Below are positions 44 to 58,199 of a stretch of DNA of 64,000 nucleotides, piece after piece. Below the pieces are notes generated by a model, which saw only the letters and a list, made by a program, of their open reading frames with translations, was not told where the DNA came from and made no database searches. The stretch comes from a virus (taxonomy: Duplodnaviria > Heunggongvirae > Uroviricota > Caudoviricetes), in IMG/VR virus record IMGVR_UViG_3300032030_000019. The stretch is one strand, 5' to 3'. Both the position numbers and the translations under genes were made by a program. The first letter of the stretch is position 1, and every line of letters starts with the position of its first letter.

Positions 44-958
44 TTAGTTCCCCTGTATACTACCTGACTGAACAGGAATCGGCCCATAATTGTTTGTCGG
101 AACATATTTACCGTCCCACTTACTTATACGAGCTATCTCCTCTTCATGCTTCCACTCAGCCTTTTTCATCTCGGCTGCCTTTGCGAGCTGCTGTGCCATA
201 TAGAGATCCGCATCCGCCTTAACCTTTACTGCTTCTGCCTCCAGCTTCTTTGCCTCGAGGTCTGCTAATGCGTTCAACTTTTTAGCTTCCAAGTCAGCCT
301 TAGCAAGTGCCACTTTCTTTTGCGACTCGGTCTCTACGATCTTCAAATCCTGCTCTGCCTTCTTTGCTTCCTGAGCTGATTTCATTGTAGACTGTATTGA
401 CCTATCGAACTCCTCACTCCAGTCATAATTCGATACCGATACCTTTATAATAGATACAGGCATATTTAATTCGCTCATAATCTTTGCAAATTCGGCCTGT
501 ACTTCCGACGTAATTTTATCCTGGTTCGCAGTTACGTCGTATATACTGTATTTACCTATGACCGTTTTAATTGCAGGACTTAAGTTACGTTTAAACGTTT
601 CCTCAATGATACTATCACCAAAGTCAGTCGCAATTAACATAATACCACTTTCTTCATACCTATACGTGATATTAGCCTCAAGTCCGATTGATTGCATATC
701 CTTTGTTACAGCGGCATCACTTCCGAACGTGAATTTGATAGTTGAGTTCTTTGGTGCAATGCTATACGTTTTAATGTTACTCAAGAACGGCGTATGTAAT
801 TTCACGCCGGGCTGAATTACGTCTCCGTTCACACGTCCAAGAAAGTACTCTACGCCACGCTCACGTTGTTGAATAATTGAACATGAGTTAAAACCCAATA
901 TAATTACCAACAATATTATACCTGCTACTACAAATAAACCAATGTGTTTTTCTTCCAT
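44..958 (-). CDS. SPFH/band-7 (prohibitin/HflC-like) membrane-anchored protein
   Basis: N-terminal TM helix (LFVVAGIILLVIILGF), SPFH-like core, long Ala/Lys/Glu coiled-coil C-terminus (ADLEAKKL repeats). Confidence 0.6.
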   Translation of the reverse strand: MEEKHIGLFVVAGIILLVIILGFNSCSIIQQRERGVEYFLGRVNGDVIQPGVKLHTPFLSNIKTYSIAPKNSTIKFTFGSDAAVTKDMQSIGLEANITYRYEESGIMLIATDFGDSIIEETFKRNLSPAIKTVIGKYSIYDVTANQDKITSEVQAEFAKIMSELNMPVSIIKVSVSNYDWSEEFDRSIQSTMKSAQEAKKAEQDLKIVETESQKKVALAKADLEAKKLNALADLEAKKLEAEAVKVKADADLYMAQQLAKAAEMKKAEWKHEEEIARISKWDGKYVPTNNYGPIPVQSGSIQGN

Positions 959-1000
959 GTCTATCTCCTATTTTTTTGTTTTTTTTTACTTACATCCAAA

Positions 1001-1237
1001 TTAGTTCCATAAATCTTCCGACTCCCAACCCTGATGTAAGTGCATTCCTAACAACGTTTGAAACGTAAACCAAAGTGAGGCGTTACGTGGACCCCCATTT
1101 AACGTTTCACCAACAAAACATAAATTTTCCTGATGGGGCATACAATACAGACATTTAACCCGATATCTAGTCATATGTGATGTCAATACATCTATCGTGC
1201 ATGTATCCCCAACGTTTACATCATACTTTATCCCCAT
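1001..1237 (-). CDS. hypothetical protein (78 aa)
   Basis: minus-strand ORF; start ATGGGGATAA overlaps upstream stop by 10 nt. Confidence 0.4.
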   Translation of the reverse strand: MGIKYDVNVGDTCTIDVLTSHMTRYRVKCLYCMPHQENLCFVGETLNGGPRNASLWFTFQTLLGMHLHQGWESEDLWN

Positions 1238-1539
1238 ACGTCTGAATCACCAATGTTGTTCCACACGTAGGTCTGAAGTTTGGTGAGATTAGTATGCATG
1301 TTTTCAGCTAAATCCCAGTTCGTACCTTCGCACAAAACGACTTGAGAGTCATCATCTACATAATTATATAGTGCCTTAAACTCCCACTCATCTATTACGG
1401 CGAACCTATGTGGACTTTGTGCTAACTTTACTTGGATAATTCTACGTGTATCCCCTATACATAAAGTCCTATTTTTGCTCATTGTATTATTCCGCATTGA
1501 CGTAACGTGAAGAAGAGAACTACAATGCCAAATATACAA
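1228..1539 (-). CDS. hypothetical protein, 'D-x-D-x-W-G' tail family
   Basis: C-terminal ...GDSDVWG shared with 4905..5189 and 1656..1889; true start probably the internal Met at about 1482 (MSKNRTL) coupled by ATGA to a small upstream ORF. Confidence 0.4.
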   Translation of the reverse strand: MYIWHCSSLLHVTSMRNNTMSKNRTLCIGDTRRIIQVKLAQSPHRFAVIDEWEFKALYNYVDDDSQVVLCEGTNWDLAENMHTNLTKLQTYVWNNIGDSDVWG

Positions 1540-1628
1540 CCAGCCAAAATAAGTCTAGCTATATCAGCGGTCCCATCTTTCTCACTATCACTTTCAGGAA
1601 ATAATTCGATTATATACTTTCGTCCCAT
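1480..1628 (-). CDS. small membrane peptide (49 aa, below the ORF-track cutoff)
   Basis: manual translation: MGRKYIIELFPESDSEKDGTADIARLILAGCIFGIVVLFFTLRQCGIIQ; one TM helix; stop overlaps the next ATG (ATGA). Confidence 0.25.
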
Positions 1629-1655
1629 ACACGCCTCCAACGTTTACATCATAAT

Positions 1656-1889
1656 CTAATCCCATATATCCCTGTCATAGCTGAATTGCCCCCAACGGTA
1701 GGTATTAAGTTTGGACTCGTCACTATAGGCGTTACCACTTAAATCCCACGAGGCGGGTTCACACCAAGTCACAAGACCAAATGTATATTCATATTGAACT
1801 AAAGCCTTGAGTTCCCAGAAATTCTCTACTACAGGTGCGACGTTGTGTTTTACTCCACGTATTATCTGAATATCACCAATGTCCATCAA
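1656..1889 (-). CDS. hypothetical protein (77 aa)
   Basis: ORF in the one-strand gene chain; C-terminal ...YDRDIWD resembles the D-x-W tail family. Confidence 0.4.
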   Translation of the reverse strand: MMDIGDIQIIRGVKHNVAPVVENFWELKALVQYEYTFGLVTWCEPASWDLSGNAYSDESKLNTYRWGQFSYDRDIWD

Positions 1890-2431
1890 ATTATTTTACA
1901 TTGGCACGAACGCATAACCTCAAGTGCAGCCTCATGTTTTTCCTTCGTTAGCCCAGCACACGCATCGGCCACGATAGTTACGTCCACACCTTCGATGGCT
2001 TTTATGGCCAACGCATTGGAAACGACGCAAATGTCAGTGCACGTACCAACCATCGTAACTGTTGAATGCGGCTCAATGAATGCACCCCACTTATCATATC
2101 CGAAGTGGGATTTATTGAGAATTGTATCATCTAACATAGGTGCCAACTCTTTTGTAATCTCCCAACCTTTAGTCTGATAGAGACAATGCGGCACAGGAAG
2201 ATACGTACCCTCTAACGTATTCAAATAATCTTCCTTGTGCGTGTCACGTGTGTAAATAATGTGATCACCACGTTTACGCGCCTCGCTTAACAACGTTTTA
2301 ATTTTGGGGATAATCTTCACTGCGTCCTCATTTGCGAGTGCCCCCGTTGTAAAATCGTTCTGCATATCAATAACCACAAAATATGCAGACGGTGTGTTTT
2401 CCTTTTCACTGCTTACTTTTTTTGTAAACAT
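1886..2431 (-). CDS. pncA: nicotinamidase / isochorismatase-family hydrolase (PncA-like)
   Basis: VVIDMQNDF (D-x-Q-N-D-F), DTH, catalytic-Cys motif VGTCTDICV; start set at the internal Met (MFTKK) with GAAGGAG SD right after the nadD stop. Confidence 0.75.
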   Translation of the reverse strand: MFTKKVSSEKENTPSAYFVVIDMQNDFTTGALANEDAVKIIPKIKTLLSEARKRGDHIIYTRDTHKEDYLNTLEGTYLPVPHCLYQTKGWEITKELAPMLDDTILNKSHFGYDKWGAFIEPHSTVTMVGTCTDICVVSNALAIKAIEGVDVTIVADACAGLTKEKHEAALEVMRSCQCKII

Positions 2432-2432
2432 A

Positions 2433-3053
2433 TTAGGCTCCTTCTTCCCTAAGATTTTTCGCATAAATTTTCACTAACTTCACACTCGATACATCAATCA
2501 AGTGCTGTAGCGATTTCCTCACTTCCGTTGCGCTTCCATCGCCGACGTATGCTACGTGTTCAACGTTTGTGCGTATGTTAATATTCTCAGACGTATACCC
2601 TGGACGATCCACTACAAGAATATCAGACTCACGTAGAATAACTTCATGTTTACGCCATAAGTGTAACATCTCGAAAGAGTCACCACCTATAACTGTTGTA
2701 AACGTATATTCGTTGCCCCATTTTTTCTTAACATCAAGTAACGTGTCAGCGAATCCACGTGTCGTATCCCTCAAATACGCAATTTCCATATCATCCACAA
2801 CTACGTTGCCCCAATTATCCGTAGCCTCACGTAACATAGCAACACGTTCAATGAAGTCAAAATTATATTCGTCTTCATCCTGTTTTTTACGATGCCATGT
2901 TACTGTAGTCGGAATGACCACTACCTGATCAAACCGATCCTTAAGCATCTCAATTATGCCTATATGTGTGGATGTGACAGGGTTAAATGTCCCACCATAT
3001 ATTGCTATTTTCATTCTAGTCTCCTGTTTACCATAATTTCTCCTGTTTACCAT
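2433..3053 (-). CDS. nadD: nicotinate/nicotinamide mononucleotide adenylyltransferase (NadD/NMNAT family)
   Basis: GGTFNPVTSTH (GGTFxPxHxGH-like), VIGGDSFEMLHLW...VVDRPGY, GSATEVRKSL match the NadD signature blocks; an alternative start is the Met of MKIAIYGG at 3014. Confidence 0.8.
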   Translation of the reverse strand: MVNRRNYGKQETRMKIAIYGGTFNPVTSTHIGIIEMLKDRFDQVVVIPTTVTWHRKKQDEDEYNFDFIERVAMLREATDNWGNVVVDDMEIAYLRDTTRGFADTLLDVKKKWGNEYTFTTVIGGDSFEMLHLWRKHEVILRESDILVVDRPGYTSENINIRTNVEHVAYVGDGSATEVRKSLQHLIDVSSVKLVKIYAKNLREEGA

Positions 3054-3412
3054 GATTCGACTCCAAAACCTATTCCCGGGTTGTAATATCCGTAATTCTT
3101 TTGGACCCCATATAATTCTATAAATATACCCAAATGTTCTGAAATCAAGTGACCGTCACACAGGTTCAACACAACCTCGTCCCGTGCTTCCCCTAAAAAT
3201 TGTCTACTATCATCATAGACCACAATACTAGCAAACAAATAGGTACCGACTTCTATTTTTTTCTTCATGTATTTACGCCCATGTATCCGTTTGCACCTTA
3301 AATGCACGATACGTTTTTGATGGATGTACCATGTCCGTACGTACGTGATAACTTTCATGTGGAAACGACCATTGATTACTACAGTCAGGGAAACGTAACA
3401 GGCCAAATTCAC
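3047..3412 (-). CDS. small protein, NPG-x-x-F...E-x-W tail family
   Basis: C-terminal YYNPGIGFGVESW; 7-nt stop/start overlap (ATGGTAA) with nadD. Confidence 0.5.
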   Translation of the reverse strand: MNLACYVSLTVVINGRFHMKVITYVRTWYIHQKRIVHLRCKRIHGRKYMKKKIEVGTYLFASIVVYDDSRQFLGEARDEVVLNLCDGHLISEHLGIFIELYGVQKNYGYYNPGIGFGVESW

Positions 3413-3537
3413 CGATTATGTGTCCACAAAGTTCTGTATATCTATTCCATGAACGAAATAAGCATAGTAATGTAAAGTCAACCTTACTTCCATTGCATAA
3501 AATCTTACGTTGGTAATAATCACCTACGTCTTTTGGT

Positions 3538-4449
3538 TTACGTCCCACTTTCAAACTCCAACGTTACACCACAATGAGGACATGTATTCTGTTCTCCTGT
3601 AAACTTTCCACCACATTCAGGACATTCGTACTCTTCCTCCTCATCCTGTACCTCAATCATATCGCACAAGTATTCATACGTATTCGCCGACATATGTTCT
3701 TTACCCTTGCCATACGTAACCAAGTCGGCAAGATCGTCAGAAGAAAACAGGCGCGCACGTACAAGATCTGAGATGATGTGTATAGGAAATTCCTGATGAT
3801 ATATAAAATCATCCGCGAGTGCTTGTACACTGATCTTATAATCCAAGAGCTCCATAGCTAATCTTAGATTAACCCTATTTCGTCCTAACGTAATCCCCAT
3901 CATATCATTAGGTACGTGAACCAATGCATGACGTCTCCACTCATCTAGATCGACTCTCATTGGTAATGTTAAATTAAGTGCATCAAGTATAAGTTTTTCC
4001 TGTCTCTCATTACCTGTAATCTGAATAACATCCATCGCACGATCATGCAGTACTTCACACAGATGTTCTTTATTAGCACCCCACTTTCCAATGAACGCAC
4101 CCATGTCACCCATAACACTGATCTTTGATCGTTCTCCGGGAACACGTACGGCTTTATATACGGTTACGTCACCATTACGTACGCCATCAATATCTTGCGT
4201 TAGTTTCAACAGATAATCAACGTTTCTGTCTAAGCTCAACGTATATCCTGTTGGCGTACGTTGAATACCTGTTACAAGTACATCTATGCAACTTCCGGTA
4301 TCACGTTCACTGATATACGGGACGTGAGCTTTCGGAAGTAATCCATCGATCTTTTGGTGATGAAACAAGATTAACCACTTGTTATTAACGTCTTGTGCGA
4401 TCTCCCCCGTTAATACGTCGCCTACGTGTTTTTCCAAACTACTTTTCAT
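3538..4449 (-). CDS. NusA-like RNA-binding protein (S1 + KH + C-terminal Zn ribbon), paralog 1
   Basis: S1-like N-terminus (VGDVLTGEI...GLLPKAHVP...TLSL), KH GxxG motif (AFIGKWGANK...MDVIQITGNE), CPECGG...CPHCG zinc ribbon. Confidence 0.5.
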   Translation of the reverse strand: MKSSLEKHVGDVLTGEIAQDVNNKWLILFHHQKIDGLLPKAHVPYISERDTGSCIDVLVTGIQRTPTGYTLSLDRNVDYLLKLTQDIDGVRNGDVTVYKAVRVPGERSKISVMGDMGAFIGKWGANKEHLCEVLHDRAMDVIQITGNERQEKLILDALNLTLPMRVDLDEWRRHALVHVPNDMMGITLGRNRVNLRLAMELLDYKISVQALADDFIYHQEFPIHIISDLVRARLFSSDDLADLVTYGKGKEHMSANTYEYLCDMIEVQDEEEEYECPECGGKFTGEQNTCPHCGVTLEFESGT

Positions 4450-53530: not shown

Positions 53531-53725
53531 TTAATCTCGGCAAACATACCAATCTCGACTTATAGGCGTAATTGAGATAGGTGCTGTAAGATCTACTGAA
53601 GTTAAGTCTTCTTCGATTACCATTTTCATATTGTTGATTCGTAGAAGGTTCTTGTCGCCATCCTTTCTAAATCCCCAATCGATAGTCTCCATTACACTGT
53701 TTGTGTCTGCAATTTTAAAAATCAT
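53531..53725 (-). CDS. hypothetical protein (64 aa)
   Basis: ORF, ATGA-coupled. Confidence 0.35.
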   Translation of the reverse strand: MIFKIADTNSVMETIDWGFRKDGDKNLLRINNMKMVIEEDLTSVDLTAPISITPISRDWYVCRD

Positions 53726-54420
53726 TTATCTTCACCTTTCTTTTTCTTTACAACTTTAATTTTTTGTTTACCTTCTGAAGATACCACTTTCTTTTCCGAT
53801 GCTTTCTTAACAAGATCGGGTTTACCTTCGTCTGTGATGATTTTAGATACGAGTTCATCTATAAATGCTTCGGCAGCGTCGCCATCGCCATGAACAATCA
53901 CGGTAACACTACTGTCACCGTCCTCATCATCCTCATCGTCCTCATCATCTTCGTAATCCTCGTCGTCATCCTCGTCAACGTCGCCTGCAAATGGACAATC
54001 TGCGCAATCGCCATCACATATGTTGTCGTCATCTTCATCAACGTCTTCATCTTCATCGATGTCCTCATCCTCGTCAACGATTTCGAGTATGGCATCATCA
54101 TCTGTGAGGTTTCGGTCAGCGTCAAATACACACTCGTCAGGATCGAATTCACAACCCTCACATGTGTCTTTACTACACATAAATCCTGCAGCAGATGTTA
54201 ATTCCACACCGCTATCAAACGCTACGGTATCTTGTATGCGTGCTTGCAAAAGTTGTGCATACTGTGATAATGTGGCAATTTGAAGACTAATCAAGATACC
54301 TTCCATGGACTGTTGATGCTTCATTTTTGAGTAAATACATGATAAGTCATGGATTTTCTCCATAACCTTATCTTTTTCGTTCTTTAAATCGACTACTAAG
54401 TCAAATACTGCTTTTTCCAT
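53722..54420 (-). CDS. extremely acidic low-complexity protein (possible DNA mimic)
   Basis: about 80-residue run of Asp/Glu (DEDEDIDEDEDVDEDDD...DEDDDEDYEDDEDDEDDEDGD). Confidence 0.5.
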   Translation of the reverse strand: MEKAVFDLVVDLKNEKDKVMEKIHDLSCIYSKMKHQQSMEGILISLQIATLSQYAQLLQARIQDTVAFDSGVELTSAAGFMCSKDTCEGCEFDPDECVFDADRNLTDDDAILEIVDEDEDIDEDEDVDEDDDNICDGDCADCPFAGDVDEDDDEDYEDDEDDEDDEDGDSSVTVIVHGDGDAAEAFIDELVSKIITDEGKPDLVKKASEKKVVSSEGKQKIKVVKKKKGEDK

Positions 54421-54435: not shown

Positions 54436-54630
54436 TTAAATTTTATATTCTTTTCGGTCCTCGAACTCTTGTGCTCTACCTTTGTTCCAATTTTTAATAG
54501 CCCGATAATACCCAACGATGCGAGAATATACCTCGGTCTCTTGGTCTCTCTTGCCATCAAGTATGTCTTTACGTCGTTGTTCTAGATCGGCTAAGCGATC
54601 TGTAAGTTCTTGTTTACTTGCTACTCGCAT
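54436..54630 (-). CDS. nrdD: glycyl-radical domain of NrdD encoded as a separate, overlapping ORF
   Basis: SRIVGYYRAIKNWNKGRAQEFEDR matches the RxxGYxxxxxxxNxGK glycyl-radical tail of NrdD, but lies in the -1 frame, overlapping the nrdD stop by 10 nt. Confidence 0.6.
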   Translation of the reverse strand: MRVASKQELTDRLADLEQRRKDILDGKRDQETEVYSRIVGYYRAIKNWNKGRAQEFEDRKEYKI

Positions 54631-57600
54631 TTGTTTGTTTCCTCCATTTCTCGTTTCTGAATAGCTTCTTTAACTTCACGAATTTGAGCATCCACTCTTG
54701 CAAGCTCCTCATCCCGACATTTAGGACAAAATTTTTGTTCACCATCCAAATATCCATGTTTGGGGCAAATAGAGAACGTTGGTGAAATCGTTAAGTATGG
54801 AAGTCTGTAATTAGTAAAAATTGTTTTTATAAGTTCAGCACACGCTTTCCAGTTGTGTATCCGTTCGCCTAAGTACGCATGAAACACAGTTCCACCTGTG
54901 TACTTTACTTGAAATTGATCTTGGATATCAAGAGCCTCGAAAATATCATCAGTAAAAGTAGCAGGTAACCAAGTGCTATTGGTATAATACGGATCTCCAT
55001 TATCATTTGCTGTGATAATATCGGGGTAGTTTTTCTTGTCATGTAAAGCAAATCGATACCCAGTACCTTCAGCAGGGGTTGCCTCTAGATTAAACAATAA
55101 ACCAGTCTCTTCTTGAAAATCAGATAACCTTGAATTAATGTAATCCATTAGTTCGTTTGTAAAGGCTTGCCCCCATTCATCAGTAATATCATGCTCGTCA
55201 TTAGTGAAGTTTCGTATACATTCATTGCATCCATTGATACCTATTGTATTAAAGAAGGTGTCATAAGACTGAACATAAACTTTACTGTACGGATAGAATT
55301 GTCCTTCAAGTAACTCTTCAATGGTCTTCCGCTTGATTACTAGAGACTCTTTGGCCATAACCAAGAGACAATCAAGCTCTTTATAGAACCCCTCTTTATC
55401 TCCCTTGAACCTATAGCCAAGTTGTGGTAAATTAATTGTAACAACACCAGTAGAACCAGTTTTTTCAGCAGCTCCAAACAGACCACCACCTCGCTTCATT
55501 AACTCTCTTTTATCGAGTCTGAGTCGGCAGCAATTATGTGTCAAGATATTATTAGCATAGAATGTATGTCCTAACGACTCACTTTGATTATAATCGTCGG
55601 GAGAGTCAACTTCAAGATCATAAACTAATCCATCATAATCAATCAGCTCGATAGATACTATTTCATCTCTATAATTGATGTAACCACGATATGAATCGTC
55701 ATTATTGCTTGGATCGAATACCAAAAGATTGTATCCTGCATTACGAATAACCTGATTCCAAGGCTTCTTTACGTATGGGGAATCCTCAATCTCATCATTA
55801 TAGTAACAATGTGTATCTCCTGAAAAATTAGTCTCTAATTCTATTACTAAATTCTTTGAGGGGATATAGAAATCCGCGATCCCAGTAAAGTTGCCATTAG
55901 AATCATTAATAACAAACTGATGCTTATACTCAAGCCCCAATGCGTCCAACTCTTTTCTGAATTTAAATTCCCAGTCAGAAGCTATGGTTGTGTGCCCATT
56001 AGTTTCTTGAACATGATCCCAATAGCCTTGTGAATGGATTGGGTTATTGGCTTTCCATCGTTCACTAGACGCTTTTCGACATTTTTCGCTAACTGGATGC
56101 CCCATACTAGTTTGTGATATTTTTTTCATGCGTTCACGGTTTTGTTCATCGGTCATGGTACGCATAGGATTGCTATTTCCTTGCCATCTACCAAGTCTTT
56201 TATTTCTATCGGAACACTTTTGTCGATAAAGTTTACCTTTTTCTTCACCGAAACGCTCTTCACATGTTTTACCACGATTCTTGTTATTCCACAACTGAAT
56301 AGTATTTTTCTCATATCTAACAGAGAATTTATCGCCAACTTTTAAGTCTTTTGCTTGACGAATGATCAATGATTTATCATTCTTATTTCTTTCTGCATAG
56401 ATTAAGTGCGGATGATCTGGTGTTGTAATGAGAATTTTACCAGATTGAGTTGTAAACTTGTACATCTTTCCAGAATACTTGATAACTATTTTCCTCTTGA
56501 TCGGATAGTATCCCCAACGTGTGAGAACTTTAATTTCATTCTCATCATAGTTATCGAATATATTCTTAATAGAGTCCTCTTCCCACTTACCATCTGGATT
56601 CAGAATTCTGATAACGGTATCAGGCATTATACACATGCTTCTTATATCACTTGGGCTTAGATCAGAATTGATGAAGTTCTGGAAATAAGGCATACCATAT
56701 TTACATGTTATTTCAAATAGCTTCTTGGCATTTGATGATTCCCAATCGAAATCCTTAGTTATGGAGTAAGTACAGATTGGGTAACTGTACAATCTGCCAT
56801 CTGCATCGCCCTTCTCGAACAAATCAAGAAGAACTTCATTAAACATATCCATCTCTTTCTGACAATCTTTATACTTGAAATCTACTTGTTTTCCACCGAC
56901 CCAACAATATGTTTCTGCTAAATCATTAGGAACAATCCAATCTAGAGTAAAGTTACTGAAGGGTGCTTGACTATTCGCCGATATAAATTCATGTCCATTA
57001 ATGTCTTGAAAGAATACTACGCCATTATCTGTTGTAGGGCACCAAACTTCTCCGTCATAAGGTATTTTCTCGACCTCAACTGGAATATTTATACGCTCAA
57101 TAGATTCAAATTTCGAGGTTAAACCAAACCCCTCATCTACGCTTAATGGAACAGTAAAATTAGCCTCTTCATCTAAGAACTCATATGCTCTGTGAATTTC
57201 TCCGTTACCAGTATATACCCGATGCTCATATGATACTATTTGCTCATAATTACAGTCTTTGTTATATAATTTAATCAAGAACTCTTTATCATTAAGCTTC
57301 CGAGTTATTTTCTTAACTGAGTTAAATTCAACTTTACGAGTCTTAGGATTTACCGTATATACCACATCTCCGATCTTAACTTCAGAACACTGTTTCCAAC
57401 CATCCTGTGTTAAGAGTCTTGTTGAGATCGGTACACACCCCCATCTACTACTACAATTGAGACCAAACAAAAGCGACTGAACACATTGATAAACCTCTTT
57501 GCGAGAAAGGTTATCTATTTTTATAAAAGGAGCCACATAAGTATCAACACTAGAATACGCCATGGCTCCAGAATTTTCGTTTTGTAGTAGGCCATTGTAG

Positions 57601-58199
57601 TTAACTAGCTGATTGAAGAGTGTGCTTAAATGCTTAGCTGGTTTTGATGTTATTTTGCCGGGCACACCACCAATACCTTCCCTGATTAAATCTAGGAAAT
57701 TATGTCCAACGCAATAACATGCCAACATACTTAAGTCATGTATATGAAACTTGCAAGCTCGATGTGCATCGCCTATCTCTTTGGGATATATCTTATTCAA
57801 CCAGTAGTTAGCCGTAACAGCCCCACTATTATTGAGAATCATCCCACCAAGTGAGAAACCCACAGACGCATTCTCCTTAACACGCCAATCACTTTCGTCT
57901 AGATATTTGTCAACCAAGTCTATCGGACGTATGCTACGTAACTGCTCACGATTATACCGATATTTGATGTATGCACGAGCGACGTTAGGATTGTACTTCA
58001 TCAGAACTTCTTCTATCATATCCTGAATCTGTTCTACGTTCATTTTGTCTACGAGCCTATCCTCTAATTCATGAAAAACAAAGTTTCCCATCTCAGGCTC
58101 ATTTGTTGCATGGCAGGCTTTATCGACGGCATCTTGTATTTTCAGACGGCTAAATTCGACTTCTCTACCATCACGTTTAATAACTGTTTTTAATTCCAT
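54621..58199 (-). CDS. nrdD: anaerobic (class III) ribonucleoside-triphosphate reductase NrdD precursor interrupted by two inteins
   Basis: N-terminal ATP cone; NrdD blocks (YSSVDTYVAPF, SQAPFSNFT, CCRLRLD...GGGLFG) and a C-terminal Zn ribbon; exteins total about 670 aa. Confidence 0.9.
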   Translation of the reverse strand: MELKTVIKRDGREVEFSRLKIQDAVDKACHATNEPEMGNFVFHELEDRLVDKMNVEQIQDMIEEVLMKYNPNVARAYIKYRYNREQLRSIRPIDLVDKYLDESDWRVKENASVGFSLGGMILNNSGAVTANYWLNKIYPKEIGDAHRACKFHIHDLSMLACYCVGHNFLDLIREGIGGVPGKITSKPAKHLSTLFNQLVNYNGLLQNENSGAMAYSSVDTYVAPFIKIDNLSRKEVYQCVQSLLFGLNCSSRWGCVPISTRLLTQDGWKQCSEVKIGDVVYTVNPKTRKVEFNSVKKITRKLNDKEFLIKLYNKDCNYEQIVSYEHRVYTGNGEIHRAYEFLDEEANFTVPLSVDEGFGLTSKFESIERINIPVEVEKIPYDGEVWCPTTDNGVVFFQDINGHEFISANSQAPFSNFTLDWIVPNDLAETYCWVGGKQVDFKYKDCQKEMDMFNEVLLDLFEKGDADGRLYSYPICTYSITKDFDWESSNAKKLFEITCKYGMPYFQNFINSDLSPSDIRSMCIMPDTVIRILNPDGKWEEDSIKNIFDNYDENEIKVLTRWGYYPIKRKIVIKYSGKMYKFTTQSGKILITTPDHPHLIYAERNKNDKSLIIRQAKDLKVGDKFSVRYEKNTIQLWNNKNRGKTCEERFGEEKGKLYRQKCSDRNKRLGRWQGNSNPMRTMTDEQNRERMKKISQTSMGHPVSEKCRKASSERWKANNPIHSQGYWDHVQETNGHTTIASDWEFKFRKELDALGLEYKHQFVINDSNGNFTGIADFYIPSKNLVIELETNFSGDTHCYYNDEIEDSPYVKKPWNQVIRNAGYNLLVFDPSNNDDSYRGYINYRDEIVSIELIDYDGLVYDLEVDSPDDYNQSESLGHTFYANNILTHNCCRLRLDKRELMKRGGGLFGAAEKTGSTGVVTINLPQLGYRFKGDKEGFYKELDCLLVMAKESLVIKRKTIEELLEGQFYPYSKVYVQSYDTFFNTIGINGCNECIRNFTNDEHDITDEWGQAFTNELMDYINSRLSDFQEETGLLFNLEATPAEGTGYRFALHDKKNYPDIITANDNGDPYYTNSTWLPATFTDDIFEALDIQDQFQVKYTGGTVFHAYLGERIHNWKACAELIKTIFTNYRLPYLTISPTFSICPKHGYLDGEQKFCPKCRDEELARVDAQIREVKEAIQKREMEETNKCE
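55533..56633 (-). mobile_element. intein 2 (367 aa) in NrdD with embedded Vsr/DUF559-like (PD-(D/E)xK) endonuclease
   Basis: starts CIMPDTVIRIL, block B TTPDHPHL, ends VYDLEV...GHTFYANNILTHN followed by Cys +1 at the CCRLRL active-site region; internal WEFKFRKELDALGLEY...GIADFYIPSKNLVIELE resembles DUF559. Confidence 0.75.
56973..57437 (-). mobile_element. mini-intein 1 (155 aa) in NrdD
   Basis: starts CVPISTRLLT (block A), TxxH-like block B (SYEHRVYT), ends YDGEVW...NGHEFISAN followed by Ser +1; parallels the end of intein 2. Confidence 0.65.

Follow-up and report, generated by a model that had tools for sequence, protein, structure and literature searches.

Glycyl-radical enzymes (GREs) are taught as single chains, in which the C-terminal radical domain flips out of the barrel for activation. 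To our knowledge, the only stand-alone radical domains otherwise known are GrcA and Y06I, the spare parts of pyruvate formate-lyase (PFL). Both GrcA/YfiD of E. coli and Y06I of phage T4 are small radical-loop proteins that insert in trans into a large barrel protein. According to a review of June 2026, the formate lyases are the sole GRE class with known spare-part proteins, and Y06I is given as a phage-encoded autonomous radical protein of the PFL type (Wagner et al., 2001, as cited in PMC13450708). For the class III ribonucleotide reductase (RNR) NrdD, all solved or described proteins, among them those of T4, E. coli, T. maritima, P. copri, and S. thermophilus (PDB 1H78, 4COI/4U3E, 8P23, 9D3X), have the radical loop behind the zinc ribbon on one chain, and the solved NrdD structures are all single chains. 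Here, the nrdD locus of the IMG/VR virus record IMGVR_UViG_3300032030_000019 (Caudoviricetes) was analyzed in a stretch of 64,000 nucleotides, referred to as the window. This phage probably encodes its class III RNR as two separately translated polypeptides, which would be tethered by helices and of which the smaller, a subunit of 64 amino acids, would carry the radical glycine. Good support exists for separate translation and for functional constraint. In the open-access literature, no report of an NrdD radical domain acting in trans was found, and the two-subunit form of class III RNR is widespread and apparently undescribed.

Catalytic chains encoded by two genes are known from other RNRs. 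The class II enzyme of P. aeruginosa is divided into NrdJa and NrdJb (Crona et al., 2015, as cited in PMC9669993), and NrdA of Aeromonas phage Aeh1 was split into NrdA-a and NrdA-b by the insertion of a homing endonuclease (PMC3653736). Split RNR genes are frequent in phages and arise from introns, inteins, and homing endonucleases at other positions (PMC3653736). The window resembles both systems in that a catalytic chain is encoded by two genes whose products would reassemble without splicing. In contrast to the window, they belong to other RNR classes, are split at other positions, and never have the radical-bearing element separated. Unlike the split in Aeh1, the type of split found in the window is ancient, widespread, and equipped with dedicated helices.

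The large gene, nrdD, is located on the minus strand (54621..58199) and encodes 1192 amino acids. Its C-terminus (CPKCRDEELARVDAQIREVKEAIQKREMEETNKCE, also read as FCPKCRDEELARVDAQIREVKEAIQKREMEETNKCE) is followed by the stop codon TAG at 54621..54623, which lies 31 residues past the zinc ribbon, and no glycyl-radical motif precedes it. The motif (ETEVYSRIVGYY) is found in a separate open reading frame (ORF) on the same strand (54436..54630, 64 codons plus stop codon), which encodes the protein MRVASKQELTDRLADLEQRRKDILDGKRDQETEVYSRIVGYYRAIKNWNKGRAQEFEDRKEYKI and supplies the radical loop in trans; the radical glycine is Gly40 (codon 54511..54513). The ATG of this small ORF lies inside AAATGCGAGTAG of nrdD, and both genes overlap by 10 nt (ATGCGAGTAG, 54621..54630), which comprise the start codon of the small ORF and the stop codon of nrdD. 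Relative to nrdD, the small ORF is in the −1 frame (frame difference 2). An earlier inspection of the letters without database searches, the sequence-only reading, had placed the end of the main nrdD frame after the zinc ribbon and the radical motif in the overlapping next ORF; direct reading and Pfam confirmed this. The large ORF covers the NRDD model (PF13597) up to position 539 of 562 (E = 8.7e-144) and the small ORF covers positions 530 to 562 (E = 1.3e-9), so that they represent consecutive parts of the model. PF13597 was the only Pfam family matched by the small ORF at E ≤ 0.01, and no match to Gly_radical, the family of the PFL C-terminus, was obtained at this threshold. Its NCBIfam matches were all NrdD models, and NCBIfam contains no dedicated model of the small subunit. 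Searching the PDB sequences with the C-terminal 156 amino acids returned nothing at E ≤ 0.01; a profile of the small subunit matched residues 616–644 of T. maritima NrdD weakly (E = 0.03), and its matches to GCN4 zippers were non-significant. The small ORF recurs at 52% to 100% identity across many independent assemblies and is therefore not a chance ORF.

Ten nucleotides 5′ of the small-ORF ATG, within the Met-Glu-Glu codons of the nrdD tail, lies a Shine–Dalgarno (SD) sequence (GGAGG, 54641..54645), which is like the SDs of the neighboring genes. The element GGAGGAA/AGAGGAA followed by ATG is kept in the related loci L005, L126, and L008. SD sites are in use in this phage: in the window as a whole, an SD-like 4-mer precedes 44 of the 63 long ORFs (approximately 70%) compared with 12% of random positions. 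The start of the small ORF on the nrdD stop codon is translational coupling. The small ORF is under purifying selection, with a dN/dS of 0.16 in the comparison with L005. In the comparison with L008, the proportions of nonsynonymous (pN) and synonymous (pS) differences are 0.27 and 0.95 for the small ORF and 0.16 and 0.84 for the tail of the large subunit. Residues T32, E33, Y35, R37, G40, Y41, R43, and N49 of the small subunit are invariant, and the radical motif is invariant across 17 to 143 homologues, depending on the alignment set. The glycyl-radical segment (amino acids 31–64, ETEVYSRIVGYYRAIKNWNKGRAQEFEDRKEYKI, 54439..54540) is preceded by a heptad helix (amino acids 5–25, SKQELTDRLADLEQRRKDILD, 54556..54618).

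The large subunit contains the same elements as canonical NrdD, namely, an ATP-cone (amino acids 5–85, 57945..58187, PF03477, E = 4e-20), the catalytic NRDD barrel, an MCCR finger loop, and a zinc ribbon, without the glycyl-radical domain; the RxxGY loop with NWN.GK is present on the second polypeptide. The barrel assignment is also reflected in the close relative L005, which matches NCBIfam NF006126 (E = 4e-281). The zinc ribbon (ICPKHG...FCPKC, amino acids 1145–1161, 54717..54767) has its C-P-K-H ... C-P-K-C motif in common with all homologues and is the last canonical element of this chain. Two inteins interrupt nrdD, both at canonical splice junctions, and their removal leaves an extein of 670 amino acids. 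Intein 1 (amino acids 255–409, CVPIS...FISAN, +1 Ser, 56973..57437), which was delimited by alignment with the intein-free NrdD of L012, is a mini-intein of 155 amino acids common to the relatives L005 and L008. Intein 2 (amino acids 523–889, CIMPDT...ILTHN, +1 Cys, 55533..56633) comprises 367 amino acids, was identified by PF14890 Intein_splicing (E = 7e-13) together with the alignment with L012, and occurs only in the lineage of the window. It sits in the finger loop (RSM|CCRL) directly before the two cysteines, and the alignment with L012 shows that the loop RSM-CCRL is restored once intein 2 is removed. The Pfam intein matches are confined to amino acids 542–870. A split intein with trans-splicing at the gene junction was also considered and was rejected on motifs, since the tail after CPKC starts with RDEEL and the small ORF has no HN[CST] before ETEVY. 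A reassignment of the stop codon, prompted by a weak crAss-like match, was rejected as well: readthrough of TAG leads into the wrong frame and to another stop, and the relatives use TAA or TGA.

The double-cysteine MCCR finger loop is shared with the NrdD2-type, thioredoxin-dependent class III RNR of Neisseria bacilliformis (Wei et al., 2014, as cited in PMC9669993 and PMC13450708). It suggests thioredoxin-type (NrdD2) chemistry for the enzyme of the window, a subtype assignment made from this motif alone. The N. bacilliformis enzyme is reportedly a single chain. A further likeness to the NrdD2 type is the CPNC redoxin domain on bacterial small subunits, a fusion that fits a protein reductant of this type; the phage small subunit lacks such a domain, and a search of the window for a redoxin ORF found none.

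Both pieces of the window's NrdD carry an extra helix of approximately 30 amino acids, which distinguishes them from canonical NrdD. In the continuous NrdDs among the loci, the stretch between the last zinc cysteine and the arginine of RxxGY is always exactly 8 residues long (30 of 30). In split forms, the large chain has an additional tail of approximately 30 residues and the small chain an additional leader of approximately 25–30 residues, and the tail helix is absent from all 30 continuous NrdDs. The linker of about 65 amino acids that the sequence-only reading had expected in a fused product is thus correct in size and corresponds to these two heptad helices. In the window, the tail helix (RDEELARVDAQIREVKEAIQKREMEETNKCE, 31 amino acids) covers 54624..54716. 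For structure prediction, AlphaFold2 (AF2) was run on an artificial fusion of the extein and the small subunit. The single-sequence version was poor (predicted local distance difference test (pLDDT) 37.5), and the version based on a multiple sequence alignment gave a good barrel (pLDDT 72) with the finger loop below 50. The tail helix was predicted at residues 637–664 (pLDDT approximately 80–86) and the helix of the small subunit at residues 676–695 of the fusion (pLDDT 67–86), both with confidence despite the poor quality of other parts of the model. Both helices show strict heptad periodicity. Counted back from the glutamate of EVY, positions −6, −9, −13, −16, −20, and −23 are occupied by L, I, V, M, or F in 66% to 96% of 143 small subunits; in 59 distinct tails, positions +8, +12, and +15 are Leu or Ile throughout (100%) and positions +22/23 in 64% to 85%. 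The helices of the window match this pattern (tail L5, V8, I12, V15, I19; small subunit L9, L13, L16, I23, L24). With the usual junction of ribbon and radical loop taken as the origin, the two registers mirror each other, which is the pattern expected of an antiparallel, hairpin-like coiled coil severed at its tip. A suggestive sign is the anticorrelation of net charge between the two helices (r = −0.64 over 56 pairs, which are phylogenetically non-independent), with +/− in Treponema and − against 0 to + in the phage. From these patterns, the helices are probably an antiparallel coiled-coil module for heterodimerization that would replace the covalent link and tether the radical peptide.

The distribution of the split was judged from gene contexts, an index-free profile search, and a full-length query. 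The homologue search with the short query apparently lists proteins up to approximately 1.75 times the query length, and the shortness of all its hits was not used as evidence. An exhaustive search of 1.84 billion representatives with the small-ORF profile gave 4090 hits at E ≤ 1e-3, 967 of them at E ≤ 1e-10. The best 150 of these 4090 are all short (51–317 amino acids) and match at the N-terminus. Among the 148 newly returned proteins of the best 150, 147 start with Met and two have a CxxC before the glycine motif, and in 63 (approximately 40%) a C-terminal CxxC domain was identified as Glutaredoxin by Pfam. Scanning a single genome for each species yielded at least 597 matching stretches; the best 80 are mostly from Treponema and other Spirochaetes and include the cultured species T. 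socranskii, T. lecithinolyticum, T. pectinovorum, and T. bryantii. Across 108 viral and genomic loci, a short stand-alone ORF was present in 77 and a continuous NrdD in 29. Both genes were found in 55 Treponema/Spirochaete loci, cultured isolates included, at distances from −97 to +346 nt and in all three frames. In the typical operon, an nrdD of approximately 700–720 amino acids ending in CPKCKAEKE..L..KL..LE.EK..L... is followed by the small ORF (M..TLEEIE.EI.ETK.EL..VHGTETEVYARIVGYYRAV.NWNKGK, then a CPNC redoxin domain) and usually by a gene with CxxxCxxC (nrdG); QNL97588.1 and QNL97589.1 are such a large and small pair of adjacent RefSeq proteins. When the 670-aa extein of the window was searched for homologues, 119 of the top 120 full-length matches (55% to 88% identity) were found to stop 23–31 amino acids after the zinc ribbon and to contain no radical domain.

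The sequence-only reading had left open whether the locus encodes a genuinely two-piece NrdD, a 1-nt indel, or a recoding event. An indel in a normally continuous nrdD, introduced by sequencing or assembly, would account for two frames that are one nucleotide apart and overlap by merely 10 nt, and some long-read contigs elsewhere, for example, L015, do show nrdD in several pieces. However, the junction is base-for-base identical, within 3194 identical bases, in the independent Logan assembly L124 and in the 133-kb JGI contig L125. Three further lineages, each represented by 3–4 independent assemblies, keep two ORFs with other overlaps, so that a comparison with nrdD of related phages, named by the sequence-only reading as a check, finds these likewise split: L126–L128 (small-ORF identity 94%) and L005–L007 (84%) with an overlap of 8 nt (ATGCGTAA) and L008–L011 (63%) with 14 nt, all in frame +1. 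A bacterial-looking contig, L012, has an overlap of 4 nt (ATGA) in frame −1. A 1-nt difference just 5′ of the ATG alters only the final residues of the large ORF. In isolate genomes of Treponema, the genes are up to 346 nt apart, and the fused product would contain approximately 60 extra residues seen in none of the 30 continuous NrdDs; the probability of an indel is practically nil. The recoding alternative, a programmed −1 frameshift or transcriptional slippage, would yield a full-length NrdD, possibly beside the separate products, and could draw on an A-rich region (GGAAACAAACAAATG) in which the small-ORF frame is open 5′ of its ATG. This open stretch, estimated earlier at about 13 codons, is exactly 13 codons long and bounded by TAA at 54670..54672. 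It contains neither a heptamer of the X_XXY_YYZ type, in agreement with the sequence-only reading, nor a homopolymer run of at least 4, and the junction shows no Rfam match and no stable RNA structure (local fold z = −0.03 versus shuffles). Likewise, no Rfam match that would indicate an intron or ribozyme was obtained for L003, L013, L015, the junction of the window, or the gaps in Treponema. The frame relation is not conserved either: it is −1 in the window and L012, +1 in L005, L126, and L008, and variable in Treponema homologues, in which the gaps range from −26 to +346 nt. Close relatives would need the opposite (+1) shift, the gaps in Treponema are long and contain stops, and what is conserved is the SD–ATG pair; recoding is thus very improbable. 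Hardly more credit can be given to gene decay, in which the split would reflect a pseudogenized nrdD with the small ORF as a non-functional remnant. The two inteins and the lack of an activase nearby would fit decay, yet they stand against the low dN/dS, a pN far below pS in the comparison with a saturated relative, the invariant radical motif, the intact MCCR loop and zinc ribbon, and the canonical splice junctions of the inteins. In addition, phages and cultured Treponema share the conserved layout, with nrdG downstream in the latter. The kept two-ORF layout of the relatives, the purifying selection, and the SD of its own all support the two-piece NrdD.

A further alternative concerns the role of the small protein, which the sequence-only reading had likened to GrcA/YfiD. 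The likeness holds insofar as a small stand-alone radical-loop protein with its own SD and ATG is encoded. It fails in two respects: GrcA is homologous to the C-terminus of PFL and restores a full-length PFL whose own radical domain has been cleaved by oxygen, whereas the peptide of the window is NrdD-type and its partner never has a radical domain. As a GrcA-like spare part, the small protein would be an exchangeable cartridge that is activated by NrdG in the free form and loaded onto a large subunit, possibly that of the host. This would be in line with the orphan radical ORFs in 13 of 28 viral loci, which have no NrdD body within 3.5 kb, with the large subunits of L003 and L004 without a small ORF within 3 kb, with the near identity of the phage and Treponema radical loops, and with Y06I of T4 as a precedent of the PFL type (Wagner et al., 2001, as cited in PMC13450708). 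The coupled genes and matched helices in the window, in contrast, suggest a stoichiometric complex, and a partner without its own radical domain leaves nothing to spare. We regard a spare-part role as unlikely; the small protein appears to be an obligate component of the enzyme, since the large subunit does not itself contain a radical domain.

According to the two-subunit reading, the large and the small chain would be made by coupled translation, the small one from its own SD and ATG. After excision of both inteins, the large chain would regenerate the MCCR finger loop. The two helices would zip, rooted at the position where zinc ribbon and radical loop adjoin in ordinary NrdDs, and the radical loop would then enter the barrel and face the finger-loop cysteine as in canonical NrdD. 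NrdG, presumably that of the host, would generate the radical at Gly40 of the small subunit. That the host provides the activase is plausible because the radical loops of the phage and of Treponema hardly differ, and in Treponema the small gene is followed by nrdG. Tethering by a coiled coil is well motivated by the helix patterns, and the replaceability of the radical peptide is put forward as a hypothesis. A two-chain design might offer benefits: the radical domain could swing out or dissociate for activation, and after oxygen cleavage at the glycyl radical, the 64-aa peptide could be replaced instead of the whole enzyme. Several observations weigh against this reading. Neither the window (64 kb) nor the loci of the phage relatives (10 kb) contain a plausible radical-SAM ORF with CxxxCxxC, as expected for an NrdG activase. 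In the AF2 model, the zinc ribbon and the radical loop have a pLDDT below 50, and their placement is not confident. The charge complementarity of the helices is not universal (−4/−4 in L005), and the pairs share phylogeny. The split lineages of L013 and L015 have no obvious paired helices, and a coiled coil is therefore not needed in every split NrdD. Furthermore, we infer the association of the subunits, the formation of the radical on the peptide, and the activity of the enzyme.

As a tentative and rather speculative extension, the small subunit of the two-chain enzyme may be detachable: NrdG would activate the peptide off the enzyme, the coiled coil would dock it, and only the peptide would be exchanged after oxygen damage. 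Phages would exploit this scheme, some of them with the full pair as in the window; those with orphan peptides could re-arm or take over the large subunit of the host, and the bacterial small subunit would also deliver the reductant via its glutaredoxin-like domain. If this holds, a natural two-component GRE would be available as a system to study how activases reach a buried glycine. The two-subunit reading, if true, would provide a minimal natural substrate of NrdG and a handle on the question of activation and domain flipping, as well as a cheap repair route for an enzyme that is irreversibly cleaved by oxygen. In Treponema, the supply of the radical and of the reductant would be joined on one accessory subunit. 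The radical peptides of the split forms range from 64 to approximately 200 amino acids.

The split also bears on annotation, as small subunits go under various names and large subunits are named as if complete. In RefSeq, the names of small subunits (for example, WP_021331198.1, WP_033421600.1, WP_021687827.1, EPF26969.1, and QNL97589.1) are inconsistent and include glutaredoxin, glutaredoxin family protein, thiol reductase thioredoxin, hypothetical protein, and, for a protein of 184 amino acids, "anaerobic ribonucleoside-triphosphate reductase." A large subunit without the glycyl-radical domain is listed there as a complete ribonucleoside triphosphate reductase. Surveys of phage RNRs that require a full-length NrdD or drop truncated ones miss or misjudge split genes.

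Several variants of the split were observed among the bacterial, archaeal, and viral loci. In the Treponema/Spirochaete genomes L044–L122, the small subunits are fused to a glutaredoxin/thioredoxin-like CPNC domain. The exception among the 120 full-length hits, P0292 (942 amino acids), combines barrel, ribbon, radical loop, and redoxin domain on one chain and looks like an unsplit counterpart. A different split point inside the second zinc knuckle was found in five contigs (L054, L060, L061, L066, and L117; Methanosarcinales, Woesearchaeota, Nanoarchaeia, Bilamarchaeaceae, and Termititenax), in which the large ORF ends, for example, in GEHFECPEVKK and the small ORF starts with MKCGKETEVY. In these forms, the small subunit would contribute the fourth zinc ligand, and the zinc might bridge both chains. 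Among 120 C-terminal NrdD fragments (P0018–P0137) from contigs attributed to Proteobacteria and other phyla, 113 stop 4–57 amino acids past CPxCDEE and have no radical motif. In L013 (3001..3654) and L015 (3001..3854), a radical ORF of 50–66 amino acids lies 130–310 nt downstream, followed by nrdG. The split may extend well beyond the Spirochaetes. An ORF of approximately 130 amino acids that encodes only an ATP-cone is located just upstream of the split nrdD in L012 (2491..2877) and L015 (1236..1631), besides the ATP-cone of NrdD itself.

The orphan small radical ORFs of NrdD type comprise 46–116 amino acids and are located on the viral contigs L018, L019, L022–L028, L034, and L041–L043, where the flanking sequence of approximately 3.5 kb to each side contains no NrdD body. 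They may be phage radical peptides that act on a distant large subunit or on that of the host. The IMG/VR contigs L003 (196 kb; NrdD at 949..3852) and L004 (160 kb) encode an intein-containing NrdD that is 57% identical over the C-terminal part and ends after the zinc ribbon (CPLCDEEIIAKYSE). The 3 kb downstream of these genes contain neither a glycyl-radical motif nor an Rfam intron, and the gene of the radical subunit may lie at another site or be lacking.

The window is phage-like, with PHROG matches to DNA primase and a dNTP pyrophosphohydrolase-like protein, and 59 of its 63 ORFs of at least 120 amino acids are located on the minus strand. Neither megablast nor blastn returned a match of the window to known phages, and tblastn of the small ORF against the INPHARED phages yielded three continuous NrdDs only and no close comparator. 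The closest homologues of the window's NrdD are from Treponema (55% to 57% identity), which hints at a spirochaete rather than a Bacteroidetes host, despite the weak crAss-like match. This match (Pfam crAss001_48, E = 0.004) stems from the gene directly downstream of the small ORF (53722..54420, minus strand), which encodes an extremely acidic protein of 232 amino acids with CX3CX2C within a D/E-rich stretch; according to Pfam, this protein is not a radical-SAM activase. L005, L008, and L126 have a gene of comparable size (209–238 amino acids) at the same place, the likeness being one of size and position.

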